NCBI GenBank assembly: GCA_964510805.1
Contig: CAZEDG010000001.1
Coordinates: 48,227 to 112,226, forward strand
Reading direction: 5' to 3'
From: an uncultured Candidatus Saccharibacteria bacterium
GTDB taxonomy: Bacteria; Patescibacteriota; Minisyncoccia; Phycocordibacterales; UBA5272
Length of the DNA: 64,000 nucleotides
Below are positions 608 through 47,077 of this stretch, piece after piece; the stretch's first letter is position 1, and each line of letters opens with the position of its first letter. The position numbers and the translations under genes were made by a program. The notes below the pieces were generated by a model. That model was given only the letters and a program-made list of their open reading frames with translations. It was not told where the DNA came from and made no database searches.

Positions 608-735
608 AATGAAGACTAGATGTTGGACGTTAGACTTTAGATATTAGAAAATACAGAAAACACAAAGAACGAAGCCCTCAGCTTTGCTCTAACTAATAAC
701 CAATTACGAATTACGAGTGGTATACTATCTTTACT

Positions 736-2315: not shown

Positions 2316-2362
2316 GGAATCGTTATTCGTAATTAGTTATTCGTAATTCGTGTAAAACAAGG

Positions 2363-2690: not shown

Positions 2691-2813
2691 ATTGGGTCTC
2701 CAAGTGGAAAAACAGCTTTTATGATACTACAATATCTAGCAAAGTAAGTCAATTTTTGGTTATGTATTTCTCTAACCTCTAACGTCTAATATCTAAAATC
2801 TAGATATGCTATA

Positions 2814-7414: not shown

Positions 7415-7783
7415 TTAAACACTTCTTTGCTTGGTTGAGATTTGGATGAATGGTCCGGTAAGAGGTTCCTCAAAAACGCTATCGCAATTATTTTTGTAAA
7501 GTCTCGGCACTTCTTTACTCACTTGCTGGCCATCGCTTAAGCGTGGGTAAGAATACAAGAAAGGAGTACCTGTTCTGCCTGTACAACTAATACGTGCAAG
7601 TCCATTTCTGGATTCGTATTCGGGTACTACGATATTGTCCAACCCAACACTCAGAATGGTCTTTTGTGTTGGAAACGGTTCCTCTTTTCCTTCTCTTGAA
7701 AGGAAGAAGATACTAACAGTACCTCCGCACCTGACTGATTGTTGCATTTTTGAGTCTCTTTCTTTATGATAAGATCCACTCAT
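7415..7783 (-). CDS. hypothetical protein, possibly leaderless
   Basis: TTGACA-N17-GATAAT promoter with the -10 box overlapping the ATG; no homolog recognised. Confidence 0.3.
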   Translation of the reverse strand: MSGSYHKERDSKMQQSVRCGGTVSIFFLSREGKEEPFPTQKTILSVGLDNIVVPEYESRNGLARISCTGRTGTPFLYSYPRLSDGQQVSKEVPRLYKNNCDSVFEEPLTGPFIQISTKQRSV

Positions 7784-7862: not shown

Positions 7863-8318
7863 ATGGAATATCTAACCTTAGAAAAGAAACAATTATTAGA
7901 AGATGAGCTTAAGAATCTCAAGACGGTTCGCCGTAAGGAGATAGCTGACGCTCTTGAATATGCTAAAAGTCTCGGCGATCTCTCAGAAAACGCTGAGTAT
8001 CATCAAGCACGTGAAGATCAAGCCAACTGTGAGGATCGTATTAGTCATATTGAGCAAATTCTCAAGAATGCAGTGATTATGGAGTCATCTCTTTCAGGGG
8101 TGATACATGTTGGTTCTACTGTTACTGTGCTTAAGAAAGGAGAGAAGCAAGAGCGAACCTATGCTCTTGTTGGAAGTGAGGAAGCAGATTCAATTTCTGG
8201 AAAGATTTCTAATGAATCACCACTTGGACAAGCGCTTCTTGGAAAGAAGAAAGGCGACAAGGTAACAGTACATGCTCCAAAAGGAGAGATGGAATATTCT
8301 ATTGTTGGAATAGAATAA
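7863..8318 (+). CDS. greA: transcription elongation factor GreA
   Basis: N-terminal coiled coil plus C-terminal FKBP-like domain, typical GreA length. Confidence 0.85.
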   Translation: MEYLTLEKKQLLEDELKNLKTVRRKEIADALEYAKSLGDLSENAEYHQAREDQANCEDRISHIEQILKNAVIMESSLSGVIHVGSTVTVLKKGEKQERTYALVGSEEADSISGKISNESPLGQALLGKKKGDKVTVHAPKGEMEYSIVGIE

Positions 8319-8379
8319 GAAAGACGACAGAATACTGACTAGATTTTAGAGATTAGACTTTAGGTATTAGTTGGGCACA

Positions 8380-8420
8380 GAATACAAAGAGCGACGCCGT
8401 AGGCGTCGCTCTTTGTATTC
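8380..8420 (+). terminator. rho-independent terminator, conserved hairpin family
   Basis: 19-bp perfect stem gaatacaaagagcgacgcc / ggcgtcgctctttgtattc, loop gta, T-rich tail. Confidence 0.7.
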
Positions 8421-8601
8421 TTAGTTATGTTTTTGCTTTTTGTTTTCATTCTTCATTCCTCCCTCTTTTCCTAATATCTAAAGTCTAATATCTACTATCT
8501 AGTCTTGTGTCGACTAACTCCCCACAATTTGTTATGATGGCTGTATGAATGTATTATAGTGGTGACTAATTACGAATAACTAATAACGAATAACTATCCC
8601 T

Positions 8602-10059
8602 ATGGCATCCCTCGAAGAACTTAAGCAATCTCGCATAAAAAAATTAGAAGCGCTTAAAGAGCGTGGGTATGTACCGTATCCAAGCAAGGCCAAGACAACT
8701 CACACCCTCAAAGAGCTTACTCATTCTTTTGCTTCACTTGAAAGTTCTCACGAAGTTGTTACTGTAGCAGGTCGTGTCATGTCATCACGTGGGCAAGGCG
8801 CTCTTGTTTTCTTTGATCTCTACGATGGTACCGCAAGACTTCAGTCAGTAATTAAGCTTCCAGAGTCAGGGGAAGTTGCTCACGCTTTTTATAATGAATT
8901 TGTTGATATCGGTGATTTTGTTTCTGTGACAGGGACAGCTTTTGTCACCCGTTCAGGTCAACCAAGTATTCTTGTGTCAGAGGTTTCTATGCTTTCTAAG
9001 TCACTTCTTCCTCTTCCTGATAAGTATCACGGGATTCAAGATGAAGAGCTTCGTATGCGTGAGAGATATCTTGATATCCTTACTAACGGAGAGCTTCGTG
9101 ATCTTTTTGAAAAGAAGGCTAAGTTTTGGAATGTGGTGAGAACTTTTCTTGGTGAACGAGGATTTCTTGAAGTTGAGACGCCAACTATCGAAATTACAAC
9201 AGGAGGCGCAGAAGCAAGACCTTTCAAAACATATCACAATGATTTTGATCTTAACGTGTTTATGCGTATTTCGATTGGTGAACTTTGGCAAAAACGCCTC
9301 ATGTCTGCAGGATTTCCAAGAACATTTGAGATAGGGCGAGCATACCGTAATGAAGGTTCTTCACCGGAACATGTACAAGAATTTACTAACTGTGAATTCT
9401 ATATGGCGTATGCTAATTATGAGGATGGTATGAAACTTGTTGAGGAGTTGTATCGAAGAATTGCACAAGAGGTGTTCGGTACTACCATCTTTACGACACG
9501 TGGGCATACTTTTGACCTGTCAGAGGAATGGAGACGTGTTGACTATAGGGAAGAGATTCTTAAGCAGACAGGTATCGATATCATGAAAGCAACAGATGAA
9601 GAGATTGTTACTAAACTTCAATCACTGCATGTAAAGTATGACGGCACGAATCGCGAGAGACTTACGGATACACTTTGGAAATATTGCCGTAAGCATATTG
9701 CTGGACCTGCTTTTCTTATTAACCATCCGCTTCTTGTTGCTCCGCTTGCAAAAGCAAATGAAGACGGTGTTACTGCACAAATATTCCAGCCAATCTTAGC
9801 AGGAAGCGAAATTGGAAAGGGGTATAGTGAGTTAAATGATCCAATTGATCAACGTGAGCGCTTCGATAAACAGCAAGAACTACTTGCCTCCGGTGATGAA
9901 GAAGCTATGATGGCGGATGATTCTTTTGTTGAAATGCTCGAGCATGGTATGCCTCCTACATGTGGATTTGGTTTTGGTGAACGATTATTTGCTTTTCTTG
10001 TAGATAAACCAATTCGTGAAGTGCATATGTTCCCACTTGTAAAACCGAAAGGAGAATGA
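8602..10059 (+). CDS. lysS: lysyl-tRNA synthetase, class II
   Basis: Class II aaRS motifs; N-terminal OB anticodon-binding domain. Confidence 0.9.
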   Translation: MASLEELKQSRIKKLEALKERGYVPYPSKAKTTHTLKELTHSFASLESSHEVVTVAGRVMSSRGQGALVFFDLYDGTARLQSVIKLPESGEVAHAFYNEFVDIGDFVSVTGTAFVTRSGQPSILVSEVSMLSKSLLPLPDKYHGIQDEELRMRERYLDILTNGELRDLFEKKAKFWNVVRTFLGERGFLEVETPTIEITTGGAEARPFKTYHNDFDLNVFMRISIGELWQKRLMSAGFPRTFEIGRAYRNEGSSPEHVQEFTNCEFYMAYANYEDGMKLVEELYRRIAQEVFGTTIFTTRGHTFDLSEEWRRVDYREEILKQTGIDIMKATDEEIVTKLQSLHVKYDGTNRERLTDTLWKYCRKHIAGPAFLINHPLLVAPLAKANEDGVTAQIFQPILAGSEIGKGYSELNDPIDQRERFDKQQELLASGDEEAMMADDSFVEMLEHGMPPTCGFGFGERLFAFLVDKPIREVHMFPLVKPKGE

Positions 10060-10126
10060 AGAGTGAAGAGTGAAGTTAATACATAAATCCTAAATTAAAG
10101 ATAACAGATTACAGATAGAAGTACAT

Positions 10127-10155
10127 AAAGAGCGACACCGTAGGTGTCGCTCTTT
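10127..10155 (+). terminator. rho-independent terminator, same hairpin family with a compensatory base-pair change
   Basis: aaagagcgacacc-gta-ggtgtcgctcttt. Confidence 0.6.
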
Positions 10156-10294
10156 GTATTTACAACCTCACTCCTCATGCTTCTTGCCTCATTCTCTCCA
10201 CTATCCACACTTTTCTTTCTCTTTTTACTACAAAGTGGGGTATAATGGGTTCAAGTGGGGGGAAGTGGGAGATTTTCCACCACTTACGACCGTT

Positions 10295-18284: not shown

Positions 18285-18495
18285 CAAGAGCTATCTCTCT
18301 AAAAACACTATGAAATTTTTTAACTACACTATTGAAGTCAAGCAAGCAGATCAAGTGATTAAACAAAGCGAACTCATCCATATCAGTAGAATTGGAGACT
18401 TCGCAAAAAGAATCGCCTAAAAAAGTATTAACCATCAACCGCTTCCTTGTATTTACCAATTACTAATAACGAATTACTAATAACCATTAACTAAC

Positions 18496-21123: not shown

Positions 21124-21261
21124 TCGAGGTATGAGCACGGGAAAGGCATTAACATCTCTCCCGTGTTTTATTTTTTTATACTCAAATTACTTTTTATGGT
21201 ATGATGTCTCGTACCTGTATCTCTATCTATTAACCATTAACTATAAACTATTAACCACAGT

Positions 21262-25624: not shown

Positions 25625-27544
25625 ATGACTGTTAATGAAATTAGACATAAGTTTCTTCGCTATATGGAGAGCAAGGGGCATGTAGTTGTTCCTTCTGCTT
25701 CCCTTGTTCCGGAGAATGATCCAACGACACTCTTCACAGGAAGTGGCATGCAACCGATGCTTCCGTATCTACTAGGGCAACCTCATCCACTTGGCACTCG
25801 TATTGCTGATTCTCAGAAGTCTTTTCGTTCACAAGATATTGAGGAGGTGGGTGATAATCGTCATACAACATTCTTCGAGATGCTCGGTAATTGGTCTTTT
25901 GGTGATTATTTTAAAGAAGAAGAGATTAGATGGATGTTTCATTTTCTTACGGAAGAATTGAAGCTTAACCCTGAGAATCTTTATATTACTTGTTTTTCGG
26001 GGAATGATGCGCTTAATGTGCCAAGAGATACTTTTTCGGCTGAGTTGTGGCAGAGGCTTTTTTCTGCAAAAGATATTGACGCGCTCATAAGTGATACACC
26101 AGAACTTGGAATGAAGTCAGGTGAGAGAATCTTTTATTATGGAGAGAAGAAAAATTGGTGGAGTAGATCAGGTGTGCCACAGAATATGCCAGAAGGAGAG
26201 CCTGGTGGTCCTGATTCTGAGATGTTCTATGATTTTGATCCTGATGCAAAGAAAGGAATGCATGCGAGCTCTCAGTGGGCACATGAGCCATGTCATGTGA
26301 ACTGTGACTGCGGAAGATTCCTTGAGGTTGGTAACAATGTCTTTATGCAGTACAAGAAAGCTGAAGGAGGTTTTAAAGAGCTTCCTCAAATGAATGTTGA
26401 TCATGGTTCTGGTCTTGAGCGCTACGTGTCTGCGGTTCGTAATGATCCGGATATTTTTAATATTGATGTTTTTGATATTCCAAAAGAAGTGATTAAACGT
26501 CTCTCAAATCATCCATACGAAGAGAGTGCACAGGTTATGTACGCGTATCGCGTAATTCTTGATCATATTAGGTCAGCCACATTTCTTATTGGGGATGGTG
26601 TTATGCCTGGCAATAAAGATCAGATGTACTTCGTACGTCGTCTGGTAAGACGCGCAGTTCGGTTTGCGCGCAATCTTGGAATTGAAGTTAATTTTACTCG
26701 AGAAATTGCTAAGGCTTTTATTTCTGTGTACAAGGATGCGTATAGCAATCTTGGAGAAGGAGAAGAACAGATTCTTTCTGCTCTTGATAAGGAGGAATCC
26801 AAGTTCCGTGTGACCCTAGAAAAGGGTATGAGAGAGTTCGAGAAGATTGCAAAGGATCATATCTCCGGTAAGGACGCCTTTGACCTCCTTCAGTCATATG
26901 GTTTTCCTATTGAGCTTACAGAAGAACTTGCATACGAACGAGGGCTTCAGGTAGATAGGGTTGGTTTTGAAGAAGAAAAGAAAAAGCACGCAGAGGAGTC
27001 TCGTACTGCGTCTTCTGGTAAGTTCAAAGGTGGCCTTGGAGGGGACGGTGATATGGAAGTGAAGTATCATACTGCGACACATCTCCTTCACGAAGCGCTT
27101 CGTCAGGTGCTCGGTGAATCAGTTGCTCAGAAGGGGTCGAATATTACACCCGAGCGACTTCGTTTTGATTTTTCTTTTGATCGTAAGATGACAGATGAAG
27201 AGAAGAAGCAGGTAGAGGATATTGTTAATAGTCGTATTCGTGATGCGCTTCCTGTTACTCGCGAAGAGGTGAGTATTGATGAGGCAAGAGCTCTTGGAGC
27301 AATCGGATTATTTGGAGATAAGTATGGTGATACAGTAAGTGTGTATCGCGTAGGGTCAGGTAAGAGACGAGGAGAGGGAAGTCTTTTCTCGATTGAGTTC
27401 TGTGGTGGGCCTCATGTAGAGAACACGCGAGAGCTTGCCGTGTCACTCCTTCCTAACGGAACGATGCTTGAAGATGTCTTTAAGATCGCAAAAGAAGAAG
27501 CAGTATCTCAAGGTGTAAGAAGAATCAAGGCGGTGCTTCAATAG
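25625..27544 (+). CDS. alaS: alanyl-tRNA synthetase, short form lacking the C-Ala domain
   Basis: N-terminal catalytic similarity (FFEMLGNWSFGDYFK); editing HxxxH (HTATHLLHEAL) and CGGPH. Confidence 0.85.
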   Translation: MTVNEIRHKFLRYMESKGHVVVPSASLVPENDPTTLFTGSGMQPMLPYLLGQPHPLGTRIADSQKSFRSQDIEEVGDNRHTTFFEMLGNWSFGDYFKEEEIRWMFHFLTEELKLNPENLYITCFSGNDALNVPRDTFSAELWQRLFSAKDIDALISDTPELGMKSGERIFYYGEKKNWWSRSGVPQNMPEGEPGGPDSEMFYDFDPDAKKGMHASSQWAHEPCHVNCDCGRFLEVGNNVFMQYKKAEGGFKELPQMNVDHGSGLERYVSAVRNDPDIFNIDVFDIPKEVIKRLSNHPYEESAQVMYAYRVILDHIRSATFLIGDGVMPGNKDQMYFVRRLVRRAVRFARNLGIEVNFTREIAKAFISVYKDAYSNLGEGEEQILSALDKEESKFRVTLEKGMREFEKIAKDHISGKDAFDLLQSYGFPIELTEELAYERGLQVDRVGFEEEKKKHAEESRTASSGKFKGGLGGDGDMEVKYHTATHLLHEALRQVLGESVAQKGSNITPERLRFDFSFDRKMTDEEKKQVEDIVNSRIRDALPVTREEVSIDEARALGAIGLFGDKYGDTVSVYRVGSGKRRGEGSLFSIEFCGGPHVENTRELAVSLLPNGTMLEDVFKIAKEEAVSQGVRRIKAVLQ

Positions 27545-27590
27545 ATAGATGAGATAGATGGTAGATTTTAGACGTTAGATATTAGAAAAG
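27541..27590 (+). repeat. seven tandem TAGNNNN heptads (TTAG-type stop repeat)
   Basis: atagata gatgaga tagatgg tagattt tagacgt tagatat tagaaaa, immediately after the alaS stop. Confidence 0.7.
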
Positions 27591-27594
27591 AAAA

Positions 27595-27623
27595 AAGGCG
27601 CGACCGCAGGTCGCGCCTTTTTT
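27595..27623 (+). terminator. bidirectional rho-independent terminator
   Basis: aggcgcgacc-gca-ggtcgcgcct, A-run upstream and T-run downstream. Confidence 0.7.
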
Positions 27624-27628
27624 GAAAC

Positions 27629-28186
27629 TCAGTCACCCCATGTAAGGTAAAACTTCGGCTTGTTGTGTTCAGGACATGCGTTGTTTGTACAACCGAAGAC
27701 ACCGAATTGGGTATAGTGAACGGCTGTAGTTCTCATATTTTGCATGTAGTAATCTTCTCGAGCTTTGTTTTCTTTTTCCCACGCTTTTCTCATTAGCGTT
27801 GGACAGTCTTCTCGTTCCTTACCTGGGAAATGCCAGAGAGTGAGAGGGTTATTACACCAAAGACAAAGTGCTGGAGTTTTTTCAACAGTTTCTTCTCTGA
27901 AGCACTTTTTACAGATTCTGCTGATATCAAAGACGCCGGTGGCGTATTTCCTATTACCGTCGCGGTCTCGGTAGAAGAGTTGTGTCCATGCGTGGTCACA
28001 ATCTGCTCTCATAGCTTCAACGGTTTCTTCTAGTCCCTGTATCTGTTCAAGGTGCTCCTGTATCTTTTTGAATGTATTTCGTATGTTTCGATCTGTTGGT
28101 CTCTTTGATGGCTTAGAAAGAGCGTAGCCACGGAAACTTACATACCTTGAATAGCGTTGTCTTCGGTTAGACATTCGGTTAGACAT
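27629..28186 (-). CDS. Cys-rich zinc-ribbon protein with basic N-terminus, unknown function
   Basis: CKKC-x11-CLWC ribbon plus CDH and C-x4-C-x2-H; N-terminus MSNRMSNRRQRYSRY. Confidence 0.4.
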   Translation of the reverse strand: MSNRMSNRRQRYSRYVSFRGYALSKPSKRPTDRNIRNTFKKIQEHLEQIQGLEETVEAMRADCDHAWTQLFYRDRDGNRKYATGVFDISRICKKCFREETVEKTPALCLWCNNPLTLWHFPGKEREDCPTLMRKAWEKENKAREDYYMQNMRTTAVHYTQFGVFGCTNNACPEHNKPKFYLTWGD

Positions 28187-28297: not shown

Positions 28298-28693
28298 ATG
28301 GACCGACCATCTGCTTCTTTTCTTTCTATCGCTGTAAGTGATACATCAACGCTTGTTAATTATGTCGTTGATGGGCATGTGCTTGTTTCTCATGTGCATC
28401 CTGTTGGGTATAAGCATATAGAAGCAGAGGGGATGGGGGTGATCGCTTCTTCTAAACTCGTCGACGGAGTGCTTTATGTGCTTGAGTTTATTTCTCTATA
28501 CGATCGTATTCCTACAGATTTTAGATTAGTGGCATCTCGATATGCTCCGTGGGTCGGTGAAGTAATAGAAAAAGCATCTTATTCACAGTTCTTCACAAAC
28601 GGTGCTCCAATAAGTGTTACACTAGAAGGTGTAAAAGACGTTCCTCTCTCATATGCAAGACATTCGCAAACCATACACTCGTTCAAGGTCTAA
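28298..28693 (+). CDS. hypothetical protein
   Basis: ORF only. Confidence 0.3.
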   Translation: MDRPSASFLSIAVSDTSTLVNYVVDGHVLVSHVHPVGYKHIEAEGMGVIASSKLVDGVLYVLEFISLYDRIPTDFRLVASRYAPWVGEVIEKASYSQFFTNGAPISVTLEGVKDVPLSYARHSQTIHSFKV

Positions 28694-30062
28694 CGATGAT
28701 CTTCATTCTCGTATAGAACGCTTCGACTTATCACACAAAAATCGTGATGAGTATGATGATTCGTACGAAGATGATCCTGTACGTATCCCTGTTAAGCGAC
28801 AGCGTCGTGATATTCATGGTATGGATATGTATCCAAGCAGACGTATGGATAAAGATGAAGAGCTTTACGAGGACGAAGGGCTATATGACGACAGAAGATC
28901 TTCACATGGACGCGTTCCTTCTCGAAGAAGAAGGATTTCTCTTGGAACGGCAGGTTCTCTTCTTGGGGTTATTTTGTTTGTTGCTGGTATTGTGCTATAT
29001 ACCTATGTTTTTGATAGTGCGACTATCACACTTACACCTAAGTATAAAGATATTCAAGATGTTGGAAAAACATTTGTTTTCTCAAAAGAAGGCGTCGACG
29101 CGTCAGGGATTCCTTTTGTTGTAGAAACAACCTCTCTTTCAAAAACAAAAACCTTACCACTCTCCGAATCTCGAAAAGTCGAGTCCAAGGCTACAGGAAA
29201 GGCAATCATTTATAATAATTATGATGGAAATACTCAGAAGTTAATTAAAAATACCCGTTTCGAGTCGTCTAAAGGTAAGATTTATCGTATTAATCAGTCT
29301 ATCGAAGTTCCAGGCAAGAAAGGGGATACTCCCGGCAGTGTTGAGGTTACGTTATATGCAGATAGTGCTGGCGCTGAGTACAATATTGACTCGACGACAT
29401 TTAGTATCCCTGGATTCAAAGGAACTTCACGCGAGAGTGCTTTTTATGCTAAGACTAAGTCGGCTATTTCTGGAGGTTCTTCAGGCACCATGTCACTTCC
29501 TTCTATTTCTGATCTTAATTCTGCAAAAGATTCTCTTGCGCTTGAACTTAAGCAAAGCATCCAAGATGATCTTCATAAGATCAAAAAAGACGGCTACATT
29601 CCTCTCTATTCTTCTGCTGAGATCGCTTATTCAGATAATGAAGAAGATATACGTAAAGGGGTTACTGATAGCTATAAAGTAACAGCTACTGCATACGTCA
29701 TGTTGGCAGATGCTTCAAAGCTCGCAGAGGCGCTTGCAAAAACATTTGGTGATTATGATGGAGGTGCTGTGCGACTTCTTTCTTCAGATGGCCTCTCTTT
29801 TACAAGAAAACAAACTGATGCAATTAATGGAGCAAACACCATTTCTCTTTTAGTTGACGGTAAAGCGAGAGTTGTCTGGGTAACTGATAGCGACGCAGTA
29901 AAAAGTCTTGTGCAGGGCAAAGAAAGGGATATGTTTAAAGGACTTATGAAGACAGTAAGCTCTGTCGATAGTGCCGAAATAAGCTTCTCACCAATGTGGC
30001 TTACACACTTCCCAGATACACGTTCTAAGCTAACCGTGACAGAATCTCTTCCAAAGCGTTGA
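28653..30062 (+). CDS. bitopic membrane protein: highly charged disordered N-terminus, one TM, large extracytoplasmic domain
   Basis: Overlaps the upstream ORF by 40 nt, so the start may be an internal Met. Confidence 0.4.
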   Translation: MQDIRKPYTRSRSNDDLHSRIERFDLSHKNRDEYDDSYEDDPVRIPVKRQRRDIHGMDMYPSRRMDKDEELYEDEGLYDDRRSSHGRVPSRRRRISLGTAGSLLGVILFVAGIVLYTYVFDSATITLTPKYKDIQDVGKTFVFSKEGVDASGIPFVVETTSLSKTKTLPLSESRKVESKATGKAIIYNNYDGNTQKLIKNTRFESSKGKIYRINQSIEVPGKKGDTPGSVEVTLYADSAGAEYNIDSTTFSIPGFKGTSRESAFYAKTKSAISGGSSGTMSLPSISDLNSAKDSLALELKQSIQDDLHKIKKDGYIPLYSSAEIAYSDNEEDIRKGVTDSYKVTATAYVMLADASKLAEALAKTFGDYDGGAVRLLSSDGLSFTRKQTDAINGANTISLLVDGKARVVWVTDSDAVKSLVQGKERDMFKGLMKTVSSVDSAEISFSPMWLTHFPDTRSKLTVTESLPKR

Positions 30063-30115: not shown

Positions 30116-30334
30116 ATGGATGATCATAACGACGATATAGAAACTATAGAAGGACGTGTCATTGAAGCGCTCCCAAGCACTCTCTTTCGTATTGAGCTTG
30201 CAGGAGGTAAGACACTTATCTCTTATCTTGGTGGTCGTATGAGAGTACACAAGATCAAGGTGCTTGTTGGAGATAAAGTTATGGTCCAAATAGATCCATA
30301 CGGAGGCAAAGGAAGAATAGTAAAGCGTCTCTAG
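30116..30334 (+). CDS. infA: translation initiation factor IF-1
   Basis: 72 aa with an S1-like OB fold; 72/72-aa match in pattern to IF-1. Confidence 0.9.
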   Translation: MDDHNDDIETIEGRVIEALPSTLFRIELAGGKTLISYLGGRMRVHKIKVLVGDKVMVQIDPYGGKGRIVKRL

Positions 30335-30452
30335 ATAAAAATAGACCCTAGAAATTATGGTATTTTTTAATACCTAAGATCTAACATCTATTGTCTAGTC
30401 CCGCAGATTTGCATTATTTATTAAGGTGTAGTATAATTTAACCCACATTTCT

Positions 30453-30566
30453 CATGAAAGTACGATCATCAGTAAAGACAATTTGTTCAAAGTGTCAGAT
30501 GCTTAAGCGAGGCGGAGTTCTTCGTGTTATTTGTGAGAACCCTAAACACAAGCAGGCACAAGGATA
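30453..30566 (+). CDS. rpmJ: 50S ribosomal protein L36
   Basis: [37 protein letters not shown]; below the ORF-track length cutoff. Confidence 0.8.
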
Positions 30567-30610
30567 ACCTTATAACCACCTACAAGTATTTAGTAAAAAA
30601 TTATTAGCAT

Positions 30611-37572: not shown

Positions 37573-37620
37573 ATTTTTTCTATTAACTATCAACCATTAA
37601 CTATTAACTGAATTTATATT

Positions 37621-45512: not shown

Positions 45513-46925
45513 ATGACTAGAATATATTGCAAGGACCTTTCTTCACATGTTGAACAAGAGGTGACTGTACAGGGTTGGATCGATGTGCGTCGTGATCAGG
45601 GGAAGATGATCTTCCTTGATCTTCGTGATGTAACAGGGAAGGTGCAAGCAGTTGCTCTACCTTTTCACACAGAAGCAAAAGAAGTTGCTGAGAAGGTTCG
45701 CCCTGAGTGGGTTGTTGAGGTTAAGGCTAAGGTTAATAAGCGTCCAGAGAAGAATGTCAAAGCAGATACCCTTAATGGTGACATTGAGCTTGAAATTCTT
45801 ACTATCACAATTCTTAATGAGGCAACCACCCCAGCATTTGATATCTCAACTAGTGGTTATGAGGTAAACGAAGAAGTAAGACTTGAGAAAAAGTATCTTG
45901 ATCTTCGTCGAAAGAGACTTCAAGATAATGTGATTATGCGACATAAGGTAATTAAGATGATTCGCGATGAGCTTGATAAGCAGAACTTTTTTGAAATAGA
46001 GACACCACTTCTTACTAACCCGACACCCGAAGGATCACGGTCATATCTTGTGCCTTCGCGTATTTGGCAGGGGAATTTTTATGCACTTCCACAATCACCA
46101 CAACAGTATAAGCAACTTCTCATGTCTTCTGGATTTGAACGATACTTCCAGATTGCAAAATGTATGCGTGATGAGGATACTCGTGGTGATCGTCAACCAG
46201 AGTTCACTCAGATGGACCTTGAGATGAGTTTTGTGAAGCGCGAAGATGTAATGAGGGTGAATGAAGAATTGCTTATTACAATCGTACAAAAACTTTTCCC
46301 TAAGAAGCGTATTCAACAAGTGCCGTTCCCTGTGTTTACCTATAAAGAGGTGATGGAGAAGTATGGATCTGATAAGCCTGATATTCGTAATGATAAGAAT
46401 GATCCTGATCTTCTTGCATTCTGTTGGGTTGTTGATTTTCCGGCATTCGAAAAGACAGGAGAAGATAACGTGGACGGGACAGGAGAGTGGACCTTTACTC
46501 ATAACCCATTCACTGGTGTCAAAGATGAATGGAAGCAGTCGCTTCTTGAAAAAAAGAATATTGCTGATATCGTATCAACACAGTATGATGTTGCACTCAA
46601 TGGGTATGAGATTGGTGGCGGTGGAATACGTCTTCATGATCCTGCAATGCTTCGCAAAGTGTTCGAGATTATGGGGTATGATGATGAACGCATCGAAAGA
46701 AACTTCGGGCACATGCTAACCGCGCTTGGCTCAGGCACTCCTCCACACGGAGGTATTGCGTGGGGGCTTGATCGCTTCCTTATGATACTTCTTAATGAGC
46801 CTAATATTCGCGAAGTAATGGCATTTCCGAAGACAGGTGAGGGTAAGGACCTCCTCATGCAGGCTCCGGCCCCTGCAAGCCAAAAAACCATGCGTGAGCT
46901 TGGTATAGAAGTGAAGGGGAAGTAG
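45513..46925 (+). CDS. aspS: aspartyl-tRNA synthetase
   Basis: Class II motifs (FFEIETP, RDED, GGGIRLHD); short bacterial/archaeal-like form. Confidence 0.9.
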   Translation: MTRIYCKDLSSHVEQEVTVQGWIDVRRDQGKMIFLDLRDVTGKVQAVALPFHTEAKEVAEKVRPEWVVEVKAKVNKRPEKNVKADTLNGDIELEILTITILNEATTPAFDISTSGYEVNEEVRLEKKYLDLRRKRLQDNVIMRHKVIKMIRDELDKQNFFEIETPLLTNPTPEGSRSYLVPSRIWQGNFYALPQSPQQYKQLLMSSGFERYFQIAKCMRDEDTRGDRQPEFTQMDLEMSFVKREDVMRVNEELLITIVQKLFPKKRIQQVPFPVFTYKEVMEKYGSDKPDIRNDKNDPDLLAFCWVVDFPAFEKTGEDNVDGTGEWTFTHNPFTGVKDEWKQSLLEKKNIADIVSTQYDVALNGYEIGGGGIRLHDPAMLRKVFEIMGYDDERIERNFGHMLTALGSGTPPHGGIAWGLDRFLMILLNEPNIREVMAFPKTGEGKDLLMQAPAPASQKTMRELGIEVKGK

Positions 46926-46929
46926 GTTT

Positions 46930-46959
46930 AGGGAGTGAGGAATGAAGAATGAGGAATGA
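46930..46959 (+). repeat. (GAATGAG)n heptad repeat (TGA-type stop repeat)
   Basis: gagtgag gaatgaa gaatgag gaatgag directly after the aspS stop. Confidence 0.7.
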
Positions 46960-46968
46960 GGTTGCAAG

Positions 46969-46997
46969 AGAAGAGCGACGCCGTAGGCGTCGCTCTT
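46969..46997 (+). terminator. rho-independent terminator, conserved hairpin family
   Basis: gaagagcgacgcc-gta-ggcgtcgctcttc. Confidence 0.65.
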
Positions 46998-47077
46998 CTT
47001 AACTTTGATTGACAAAAAGTATTATATTATGTAGTATAATTATTAGTTTTGGGAATCAAAAAATGGAAGGAACCAAA

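Follow-up and report, generated by a model that had tools for sequence, protein, structure and literature searches.

Intergenic heptad arrays with a phased TAG core in a Candidatus Saccharibacteria contig: polar placement at gene ends and recurrence in related and distant genomes

Heptanucleotide repeats are the commonest longer simple repeats in bacteria and have been known for years without an accepted function; those of cyanobacteria are called STRR. The TAACTGA heptamers are intergenic direct repeats of two to six copies in Beggiatoaceae, Cyanobacteria and Bacteroidetes that carry stop codons in the three forward frames, and about 130 sets of them face start codons without a ribosome-binding site (RBS) versus 12 that face stop codons (MacGregor 2015, PMC4679880). 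S1, cold-shock or CsrA-type binders were proposed for these repeats in the same work, which cites CspB as a case of one protein per heptamer and whose introduction names heptanucleotides as the most abundant longer repeat class in earlier studies. A polymerase-slippage origin of bacterial heptanucleotide repeats is put forward in that introduction and in PMC4692102 (Rehm et al. 2015). The latter paper describes GGGAATC and GGGGAYT heptamers, inverted arrangements included, and states that there was no detailed literature on heptameric repeats at that time. Triplets with 4-nt spacers are also known from HutP of Bacillus subtilis, which binds three XAG motifs on each face next to the terminator stem of hut (PMC2425495). 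Here we describe heptad arrays with a TAG core in a stretch of 64,000 nt (the window) from an uncultured Candidatus Saccharibacteria bacterium (GenBank assembly GCA_964510805.1, contig CAZEDG010000001.1, positions 48,227 to 112,226). A first-pass annotation had listed six such TTAG arrays, c1 to c6 (Table 1), had read them as elements that end translation entering in any frame from either direction, and knew of no such described class. The six elements are copies of a genome-specific member of about 35 nt (TTAGAYR, four to five times) of a widespread intergenic heptad class; blocks of three to five units characterise this class, and the part conserved in each unit is an XAG triplet, in most cases TAG, that recurs at 7-nt intervals.

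All six arrays are present, and their frequency is far from random. Runs of at least three TAG at 7-nt spacing occur six times versus 0.17 expected (200 second-order Markov simulations, maximum two), and runs of at least four occur five times versus 0.005 expected. Among the spacings from 4 to 12 that were compared in the window only 7 is enriched, the others giving zero or one run. Each array lies between long open reading frames (ORFs). Oriented alike, the six align with 19 invariant columns and a common order of units, with the consensus GAC TAGATnT TAGAnnT TAGACkT TAGATAT TAGAaaa; they are therefore related copies of one element and not six independent microsatellites. The arrays consist of head-to-tail 7-nt units above chance, as in heptanucleotide tandem repeats, and contain at least three XAG motifs with 4-nt spacers, which is how the motif of a HutP site is defined.

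With respect to the neighbouring genes the copies fall into two groups. On the plus strand, c1, c3 and c5 begin 9-21 nt downstream of the stop codons of a nuclease-like ORF (77-607, PD-(D/E)XK/Cas4-like), greA and alaS, respectively. Strong terminators follow c3 and c5, and a decayed copy of the c3 terminator follows c1. The minus-strand copies c2, c4 and c6 directly precede plus-strand promoters, namely those of rlmB, lysS and rpmJ. The proposed abutting of gene stops and terminators applies to some of the copies only. The c2 array is flanked by a minus-strand promoter (TTGACT-17-TAGTAT, 2752-2724) and the rlmB TATAAT (2810-2815). In the greA-lysS spacer, c3 and c4 are inverted and pair as an outer stem of about 35 bp round the terminator (-75.3 kcal/mol, z = -11). 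The flanking of this hairpin by two inverted copies had been described as symmetric, but the distances between hairpin and array are unequal, 8 and 49 nt. The c6 array forms the 5' arm of a minus-strand hairpin (-19.6 kcal/mol, z = -4.5), which is followed by UAUUUUUAU. The arrays themselves are not intrinsic terminators: c5, and c4 taken alone, are predicted to be unstructured, and the hairpins are separate adjoining parts (8379-8421 and 27591-27623). The composite of array and hairpin at 606-697 is paralogous to that at 8329-8419, with an offset of 50-51 nt in both.

Table 1. Heptad arrays and adjoining terminators; positions refer to the window unless a locus of another genome is named.
Feature	Position	Strand	Sequence	Context
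c1	614-651	+	GAC TAGATGT TGGACGT TAGACTT TAGATAT TAGAaaa	begins 9 nt past TAG stop of ORF 77-607
c2	2768-2805	-		divergent spacer, between minus-strand promoter and rlmB TATAAT
c3	8337-8374	+		greA 3' region (greA stop 8316-8318); terminator 8 nt on
c4	8467-8504	-		inverted partner of c3; abuts lysS promoter -35 (TCGACT, 8510)
c5	27552-27589	+		begins 10 nt past alaS stop (27542-27544); predicted unstructured
c6	30370-30400	-		between infA (30116-30334) and rpmJ (30454-30570), upstream of rpmJ promoter
c6 partner, degenerate, two units	30341-30360	+	TAGACCC TAGAAAT	just past infA stop; other arm of c6 hairpin
Palindromic terminator, decayed (68%)	657-697	+		50 nt after c1 composite start; -12.7 kcal/mol, z = -1.2
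Palindromic bidirectional terminator	8379-8421	.	AGAATACAAAGAGCGACGCC-GTA-GGCGTCGCTCTTTGTATTCT	20 pairs, 3-nt loop; reference copy of four-member dispersed family
Intrinsic terminator after c5	27591-27623	+	AAAAAAGGCGCGACC-GCA-GGTCGCGCCTTTTTT	-26 kcal/mol, z = -5.6
lysS 5'-UTR heptad array, G-poor	8563-8598	+	CTAATTA CGAATAA CTAATAA CGAATAA CTATCCCT-ATG	extends to start codon
Other G-poor heptad arrays	690-716, 18455-18494, 21229-21257, 37580-37609			extend to start codons
G-poor heptad array, reverse copy	2320-2351			downstream of stop of ORF 1611-2315
GARTGAR array	10053-10075			after stop of lysS, upstream of common-family terminator
GARTGAR array	46932-46961			after stop of ORF 45513-46925, upstream of common-family terminator
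Purine-rich GARTGAR-type heptad array, inverted	8441-8466	-		between terminator and c4
Heptad array phased CAG/AAG	10099-10121		AGATAAC AGATTAC AGATAGA AG	between GARTGAR array and terminator past lysS
Non-stop array	L126 8939		(CAGACAA)4	related locus
Non-stop array	L134 8477		(AAGATnn)5	related locus
Non-stop array	L125 17824		(CAGnTTA)4	related locus

The TAACTGA repeats resemble the window arrays in being tandem intergenic heptamers that are oriented with respect to genes and contain stops in three frames, and Cyanobacteria and Bacteroidetes also dominate the matches listed in our pattern scan of other phyla. In addition, the reverse complement CAGTTAT is one base from the TAGTTAT units of our arrays. 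Unlike them, the window copies have TTAGAYR units with a TAG core, stand after stops or upstream of promoters, often ahead of or round terminators, and belong to the candidate phyla radiation (CPR). Their units are imperfect with TAG alone conserved, and a two-end polarity and inverted pairing are not described for TAACTGA. The forward placement directly before starts that lack an RBS is not shared by c1 to c6 but is found for other heptad arrays of the window, the leaders at lysS, 18455, 21229 and 37580, which are of the TAACTGA type. The units of these leaders are ATAACTA, ATAACGA or TTAACCA, with a single TTAACTGA at about 37605. HutP sites share with the arrays three mostly UAG XAG motifs, the 7-nt period, the minimum of three units, the free spacers and a GC-rich terminator stem nearby. 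However, the two sites that HutP recognises lie on the same strand of one operon leader with 12-17 nt between them, whereas partner arrays round a stem in our set are inverted (CUA in the RNA), and TGG variants are common. A phmmer search with HutP (identical to PDB 1VEA) gave no match among 15,092 ORF segments taken from the window and the full set of loci, which cover gene neighbourhoods only.

Inverted arrangements capable of forming stem-loops are also known for the Xanthomonas GGGAATC repeats. Other bacterial heptanucleotide repeats differ in that they mostly consist of a single perfect or nearly perfect unit, are sometimes very long, and were studied for G-quadruplexes or fingerprinting, whereas only three of seven positions are conserved here, the maximum is three to five units, and the arrays are polar. 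REP, BIME and REPIN sequences are dispersed, near-identical GC-rich palindromes after genes, inverted doublets of which form long hairpins, and REPs have a GTAG. In the window, an NTAG-like motif beside a palindrome recalls this GTAG, the terminator palindrome has four copies (68-100% identity), and the outer stem of c3 and c4 is doublet-like, but REPs are not known to be built from heptads, and the heptad arms here vary from copy to copy in a manner not known of REP copies. Intergenic heptanucleotide repeats as such are documented, and it is the TAG/XAG-phased, polar, size-bounded, terminator-associated variant and its occurrence in the CPR that is not found in the literature searched.

For comparison we used 80 related Parcubacteria loci (Candidatus Parcubacteria/Paceibacterota, 1.07 Mb, L124-L203). 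Period 7 dominates the short tandem periods in these relatives, with 12 arrays versus at most two at any other period and none in shuffled sequences (scan at a fixed scanning length). Phased-triplet runs number 310 at spacing 7 versus 14-94 at others, a 3- to 20-fold excess over spacings 5, 6, 8, 9 and 10. The leading phased triplet is TAG/CTA (38 arrays), although it is compositionally disfavoured, followed by AAC/GTT (20 arrays), and TA is the most strongly phased dinucleotide. TAG runs of two units are at chance (281 versus 250 expected), whereas runs of three, four and five occur 26, 19 and 17 times versus 1.7, 0 and 0 expected. Only two arrays have six units and none is longer; the arrays are bounded in size at three to five units. 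The units of the 66 TAG arrays vary among genomes and even inside one array (TAGCCAC, TAGGTTT, TAGTTAC, TAGCTTG or TAGACAG), and the composition of the four remaining positions (N4) is close to genomic. Because these four positions turn over, the TTAGAYR unit is a local flavour of the window genome; what recurs at gene ends in related genomes is the phased TAG/CTA. Three of the 66 arrays lie inside ORFs, a scarcity that is partly forced since the TAG strand carries stops. Their density is about 0.7 per kb of tandem spacer. In about ten relatives the orthologous greA-lysS spacer has the order stop, (TAG-N4)n, palindromic terminator, in some cases a further array in inverted orientation, then promoter, (CTA-N4)n and CCCT-ATG, and here, too, the phased TAG/CTA is kept while the N4 bases change.

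The class is not confined to this lineage. A pattern scan for TAGA-heptad arrays with one genome per species, which is a sample and not a census, returned matches from genomes of 25-71% GC. Cyanobacteria (mostly Microcoleus) and Bacteroidota are especially frequent among the matches listed, which also include Acidobacteriota, Chloroflexota, several CPR groups, Clostridia, a few Proteobacteria and one Nanoarchaeote. Inverted pairs that flank a hairpin or make one up are numerous among the matches listed, and imperfect TTAGAYR units as in the window are present in several. Candidate cultivable carriers are Chryseobacterium or Flavobacterium isolates with TTAGAYR arrays (L104, L111 and L043), Nostoc or Microcoleus, and Aliivibrio fischeri ES114 (chromosome II, about 792-800 kb). 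At six loci of distant genomes (L080 of a Nanoarchaeote, 2456-2515, and L046, L030, L044, L077 and L086) an array and its adjacent reverse complement are themselves the hairpin stem, with no GC-rich terminator between them. One of the related loci, L192, contains a dispersed heptad element of its own, about 35 nt long (TTAGGTTAATTAGAAATTAGRCCTTAAACCTT). At least four copies, among which both orientations are represented (1060-1160 and 1740-1885), surround an ORF whose translation reads as ribosome recycling factor (frr). The existence of this private element implies that each genome carries a private sequence family, and within such per-genome families the order of units is conserved.

The strongest regularity of the arrays is their orientation. 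Among the arrays that are not palindromic and lie no more than 40 nt from the end of an ORF, the Parcubacteria set has TAG in sense 17 times and in antisense five times after stops, versus 17 times in antisense and once in sense before starts (p = 4.6e-6). The cross-phylum set, which is independent, gives the same picture with 49 sense and 10 antisense arrays after stops versus six and 27 before starts (p = 1.1e-9). Artefacts of longest-ORF calling would push the polarity the other way. TAG is thus on the plus strand in the left half of a spacer and on the minus strand in its right half, in tandem, convergent and divergent spacers alike. In other words, whichever end of the gene is considered and whatever the type of spacer, the 5' to 3' direction of the TAG strand leads away from the adjoining ORF. 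Adjacent arrays are arranged inward more often than outward (8:1 and 20:4), and the arms of inverted pairs are 62% identical at the N4 positions. A complementary partner lies ahead of nine of 62 and 50 of 169 arrays (15-30%) and behind one of 62 and eight of 169; most arrays have no inverted partner.

These observations led us to prefer, tentatively and as a possibility, that the arrays are a polar gene-boundary signal read on the nucleic acid leaving a gene. The three contexts in which they occur, 3' untranslated regions (UTRs), 5' UTRs and positions upstream of promoters, are compatible only with a signal that is presented on the strand or transcript that leaves the gene. A reader of the sense strand at the 5' end is disfavoured since it would act on the gene's own mRNA, which has the rare orientation. 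The array would be read in single-stranded form, either as (UAG-N4)n in nascent RNA or on the non-template DNA strand, and would help to end or insulate transcription units with respect to both sense read-through and antisense transcripts that leave the 5' end. This could be achieved by recruiting a putative factor that contacts one unit in every 7 nt, in the manner of HutP or of proteins with a cold-shock domain, and/or by providing the outer stem of long terminator palindromes. In line with a role at terminators, strong hairpins are found downstream of 58% of the sense 3' arrays versus 27% of control gene ends (p = 0.036).

Several points weigh against such a signal. The association with hairpins is moderate only (n = 19), arrays are also present in divergent spacers, where a sense terminator is not needed, and c2 is outside both predicted sense transcripts. 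The commonest broken unit is TGG and not XAG. No homologue of HutP, CspA, TRAP or Hfq is found in the roughly 2 Mb of window and loci, which comprise gene neighbourhoods only. The gene models are crude longest-ORF calls. The complementarity of the arms could come from template-switching copying instead of function, and the polarity might be a passive filter, for example if G-poor leaders are required in a lineage without Shine-Dalgarno use.

It is unlikely, in our opinion, that the XAG arrays amount to a cross-phylum gene-boundary code in which UAG is read with a 7-nt period on transcripts that leave a gene in either direction, by a conserved putative single-strand-binding factor, by RNA polymerase or by the ribosome, and termination or insulation is thereby enforced. 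Such a code would apply especially to lineages of little Shine-Dalgarno use (CPR, Bacteroidota, Cyanobacteria and others), and the TAACTGA leaders would then, with the same low probability, be the same code on the other strand. Independent of the reader, one large subclass of the heptanucleotide repeats is shown here to combine three conserved nucleotides per unit, an invariable 7-nt spacing, a limited length and a strict orientation relative to gene ends across phyla of 25-71% GC, and such a cis-element can be tested by mutations with clear predicted outcomes. Any reader of the arrays, should one exist, would be new as a general component in the definition of transcription units in the poorly studied CPR, Bacteroidota and Cyanobacteria, and the arrays would help to annotate gene boundaries, terminators and leaders without Shine-Dalgarno motifs in metagenome-assembled genomes.

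Alternatively, the arrays might be functionless or selfish repeats that owe their origin to slippage by 7 nt and to the copying of palindromic modules, with a polarity that only reflects where they are tolerated: a G-containing TAG strand would not be tolerated in G-poor leaders without Shine-Dalgarno motifs and a C-containing strand would not be tolerated in 3' trailers. We regard this as somewhat unlikely. It would agree with the introduction of PMC4679880 and with PMC4692102, according to which heptanucleotides are the most abundant longer class of simple sequence repeats in many bacteria and may originate by slippage, with the coexistence of many heptad unit types (52 of 94 arrays have no phased stop), and with the private family of each genome, its conserved unit order and the duplicated composites of array and hairpin. 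However, slippage should produce a continuum of lengths, while two-unit runs are not enriched and there is a ceiling at about five units. The retention of TAG at orthologous sites where the N4 positions randomise, and its rank as top phased triplet despite unfavourable composition, are not expected of selfish repeats either, and the near-genomic N4 composition leaves little for a composition filter to act on.

The explanation given by the first-pass annotation, that the arrays are three- or six-frame stop pads, has in its favour the stop content, the abundance and the placement. A pad of this kind would free any ribosome before a terminator or the next gene and thereby uncouple translation from transcription. 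The sense 3' arrays close three frames by construction, and the TAG-strand frames are closed in all six window copies. Coverage of six frames (TAG forward, TAA/TAG reverse) had been claimed throughout and is found in five of the six, c6 closing only two of the three plus-strand frames. The threshold of enrichment, three units, is exactly the minimum for three-frame coverage, and arrays begin 1-20 nt after stop codons and ahead of terminators. Spurious initiation may be commoner in a lineage without Shine-Dalgarno use, and the same property was noted for the TAACTGA repeats (PMC4679880). Nevertheless, stops are not interchangeable in the arrays. TAA is the main real stop codon (62%, versus 29% TAG and 9% TGA), yet among phased triplets past a stop codon TAG accounts for 19 cases, TAA for eight and TGA for fewer than three. 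Broken in-phase units are mostly TGG (16 of 38 and 14 of 58) and only in three of 38 and eight of 58 cases TAA or TGA; a G to A change in the broken unit would have kept a stop, yet is rare. Any spacing that is not a multiple of three covers the frames, so that spacings of 4, 5, 8 or 10 would serve as well, but only 7 is used in the window. Upstream of starts all three sense frames are closed in ten of 18 arrays and one is left open in the other eight. A reverse-strand stop (CTAA/CTAG) depends on the base 5' of TAG, and pyrimidines make up 68% of these bases in arrays past stops and 65% in arrays ahead of starts (p = 0.86), without extra preference at the 5' side. AG-phased arrays with TAG in fewer than three frames (CAG, AAG or GAG; Table 1) share the position and keep the polarity (8/2 versus 1/6, p = 0.015). 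In addition, for eubacteria PMC6764699 reports no evidence of selection for fail-safe 3' stop codons. Together this suggests that what selection maintains is a phased UAG/XAG signal and not stops in six frames, and we consider stop pads unlikely. A stop model is still favoured by the threshold of three units and by the position of the arrays directly past stops and ahead of terminators. Under the gene-boundary signal, three-frame coverage follows from T being the preferred X; the stops may be a by-product with a possible added benefit, and not the defining property.

A primary role in the 5' UTR would make the (CUA-N4)n and TAACTGA-type G-poor leaders sites for ribosome loading independent of Shine-Dalgarno motifs or for a regulator, and the 3' copies inverted by-products of palindrome formation around terminators. 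Tandem Repeats Finder indeed detects further period-7 arrays of other types in the window, among them G-poor, AAC/CTA-phased arrays directly 5' of start codons with no visible Shine-Dalgarno motif. The lysS leader array is a reverse-orientation, degenerate member of the TAG heptad class, and orthologous lysS leaders in relatives carry (CTAN4)4-5; phased CTA, TAA or AAC arrays stand 5-25 nt before ATG. Shine-Dalgarno motifs are not used in the window and its relatives: GGAG, GAGG or AGGA occurs at -20 to -4 of seven of the 64 window ORFs versus six of 64 in a coding control, and of 123 of 1033 ORFs overall (window and L124-L203) versus 136 of 1033. The excess of TAACTGA sets that face RBS-less starts and the one-base difference between CAGTTAT and the TAGTTAT units point in the same direction. 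However, 3' sense arrays equal the 5' arrays in the lineage (17 versus 17) and are more numerous across phyla (49 versus 27), most arrays lack an inverted partner, and c2, c4 and c6 are upstream of promoters and not in leaders. A primary role in leaders is therefore improbable. The least probable proposal, double-stranded sites for a polar DNA-binding protein acting as roadblock or promoter-upstream element, would suit c2, c4 and c6 at about -20 to -75 of plus-strand promoters, c2 being outside predicted sense transcripts, as well as the phased TA and a three-unit minimum of 21 bp, presumably two helical turns, but the polarity tracks gene ends in all contexts including the inside of 5' and 3' UTRs, no candidate protein is known, and a 7-bp repeat is out of helix phase for side-by-side binding.

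Some further readings were considered and rejected. The repeated terminators and multi-frame stops might suggest a synthetic or refactored genome, but the same DNA recurs identically in three metagenome assemblies of independent origin, and its relatives belong to the Parcubacteria. For LysS of the window, identical proteins are present in metagenome assemblies of JGI and Logan. The window is part of a natural CPR genome. The loci L001-L003 are 100% identical to the window and therefore carry no information on strain-level slippage. Although c3 and c4 are inverted repeats, no flanking duplication is visible at 8330 and 8510 as would be expected of a transposon or a miniature inverted-repeat transposable element, and the window holds no second full-length c3-c4 copy. 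Nor does a transposon with heptad terminal repeats fit L192, where the translation of the ORF between inward arrays reads as ribosome recycling factor and not as transposase. Primases initiate with trinucleotide specificity, such as d(CTA) or d(CTG). Primase initiation sites and a strand-wide compositional bias were both dismissed because the polarity tracks gene ends and one spacer holds both orientations on one strand, independent of replication direction. Seeding from the gene's own stop codon is contradicted by the register of the window arrays (offsets of 12, 24 and 13 nt from the stops) and by the under-representation of TAA. A search of a plasmid database gave no match.

The remaining heptad arrays and the terminators of the window have features of their own. 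The G-poor arrays that reach start codons (ATAACTA/ATAACGA or TTAACCA/TTAACTA) contain 2-12% G. The GARTGAR arrays, which follow stop codons, are purine-only with 0% C, have TGA in three frames, and contain GGAG/GAGG motifs resembling Shine-Dalgarno sequences together with AUGA. The terminator family AGAATACAAAGAGCGACGCC-GTA-GGCGTCGCTCTTTGTATT has four window copies (8379-8419, 10120-10160, 46963-47003 and 657-697) with identities of 100, 88, 76 and 68%, respectively, a dispersal reminiscent of REP, and a hairpin resembling this palindromic terminator is present in the greA-lysS spacer of the relative L130.

The genes of the window are ordinary housekeeping genes, including rlmB, mreB/C, greA, lysS, mraZ, a short alaS, infA, rpmJ and rpsM. 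Neither Rfam families nor tRNAs were found in its 64 kb. Six ORFs are without Pfam match (1611-2315, 2394-2690 on the minus strand, 7415-7783 on the minus strand, 27629-28186 on the minus strand, 28298-28693 and 28653-30062), and an NCBIfam scan of 1611-2315, 2394-2690, 27629-28186 and 28653-30062 gave no match; the ORF directly upstream of infA, with 469 aa, has no Pfam match. Several genes have a -10 box about 10-30 nt from the ATG, and rlmB is nearly leaderless, with its TATAAT at 2810-2815 and the start called by JGI at 2823. A TCGAC(T) box that precedes a TATGAT/TATTAT -10 box by about 17 nt is conserved between the window (8505-8540) and the orthologous spacers of L124, L126, L127, L130-L133, L136 and L139, and looks like the -35 element of the lysS promoter in this lineage. 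The pyrimidine run CCCT/CCTAT directly 5' of the lysS ATG is conserved in these spacers as well.

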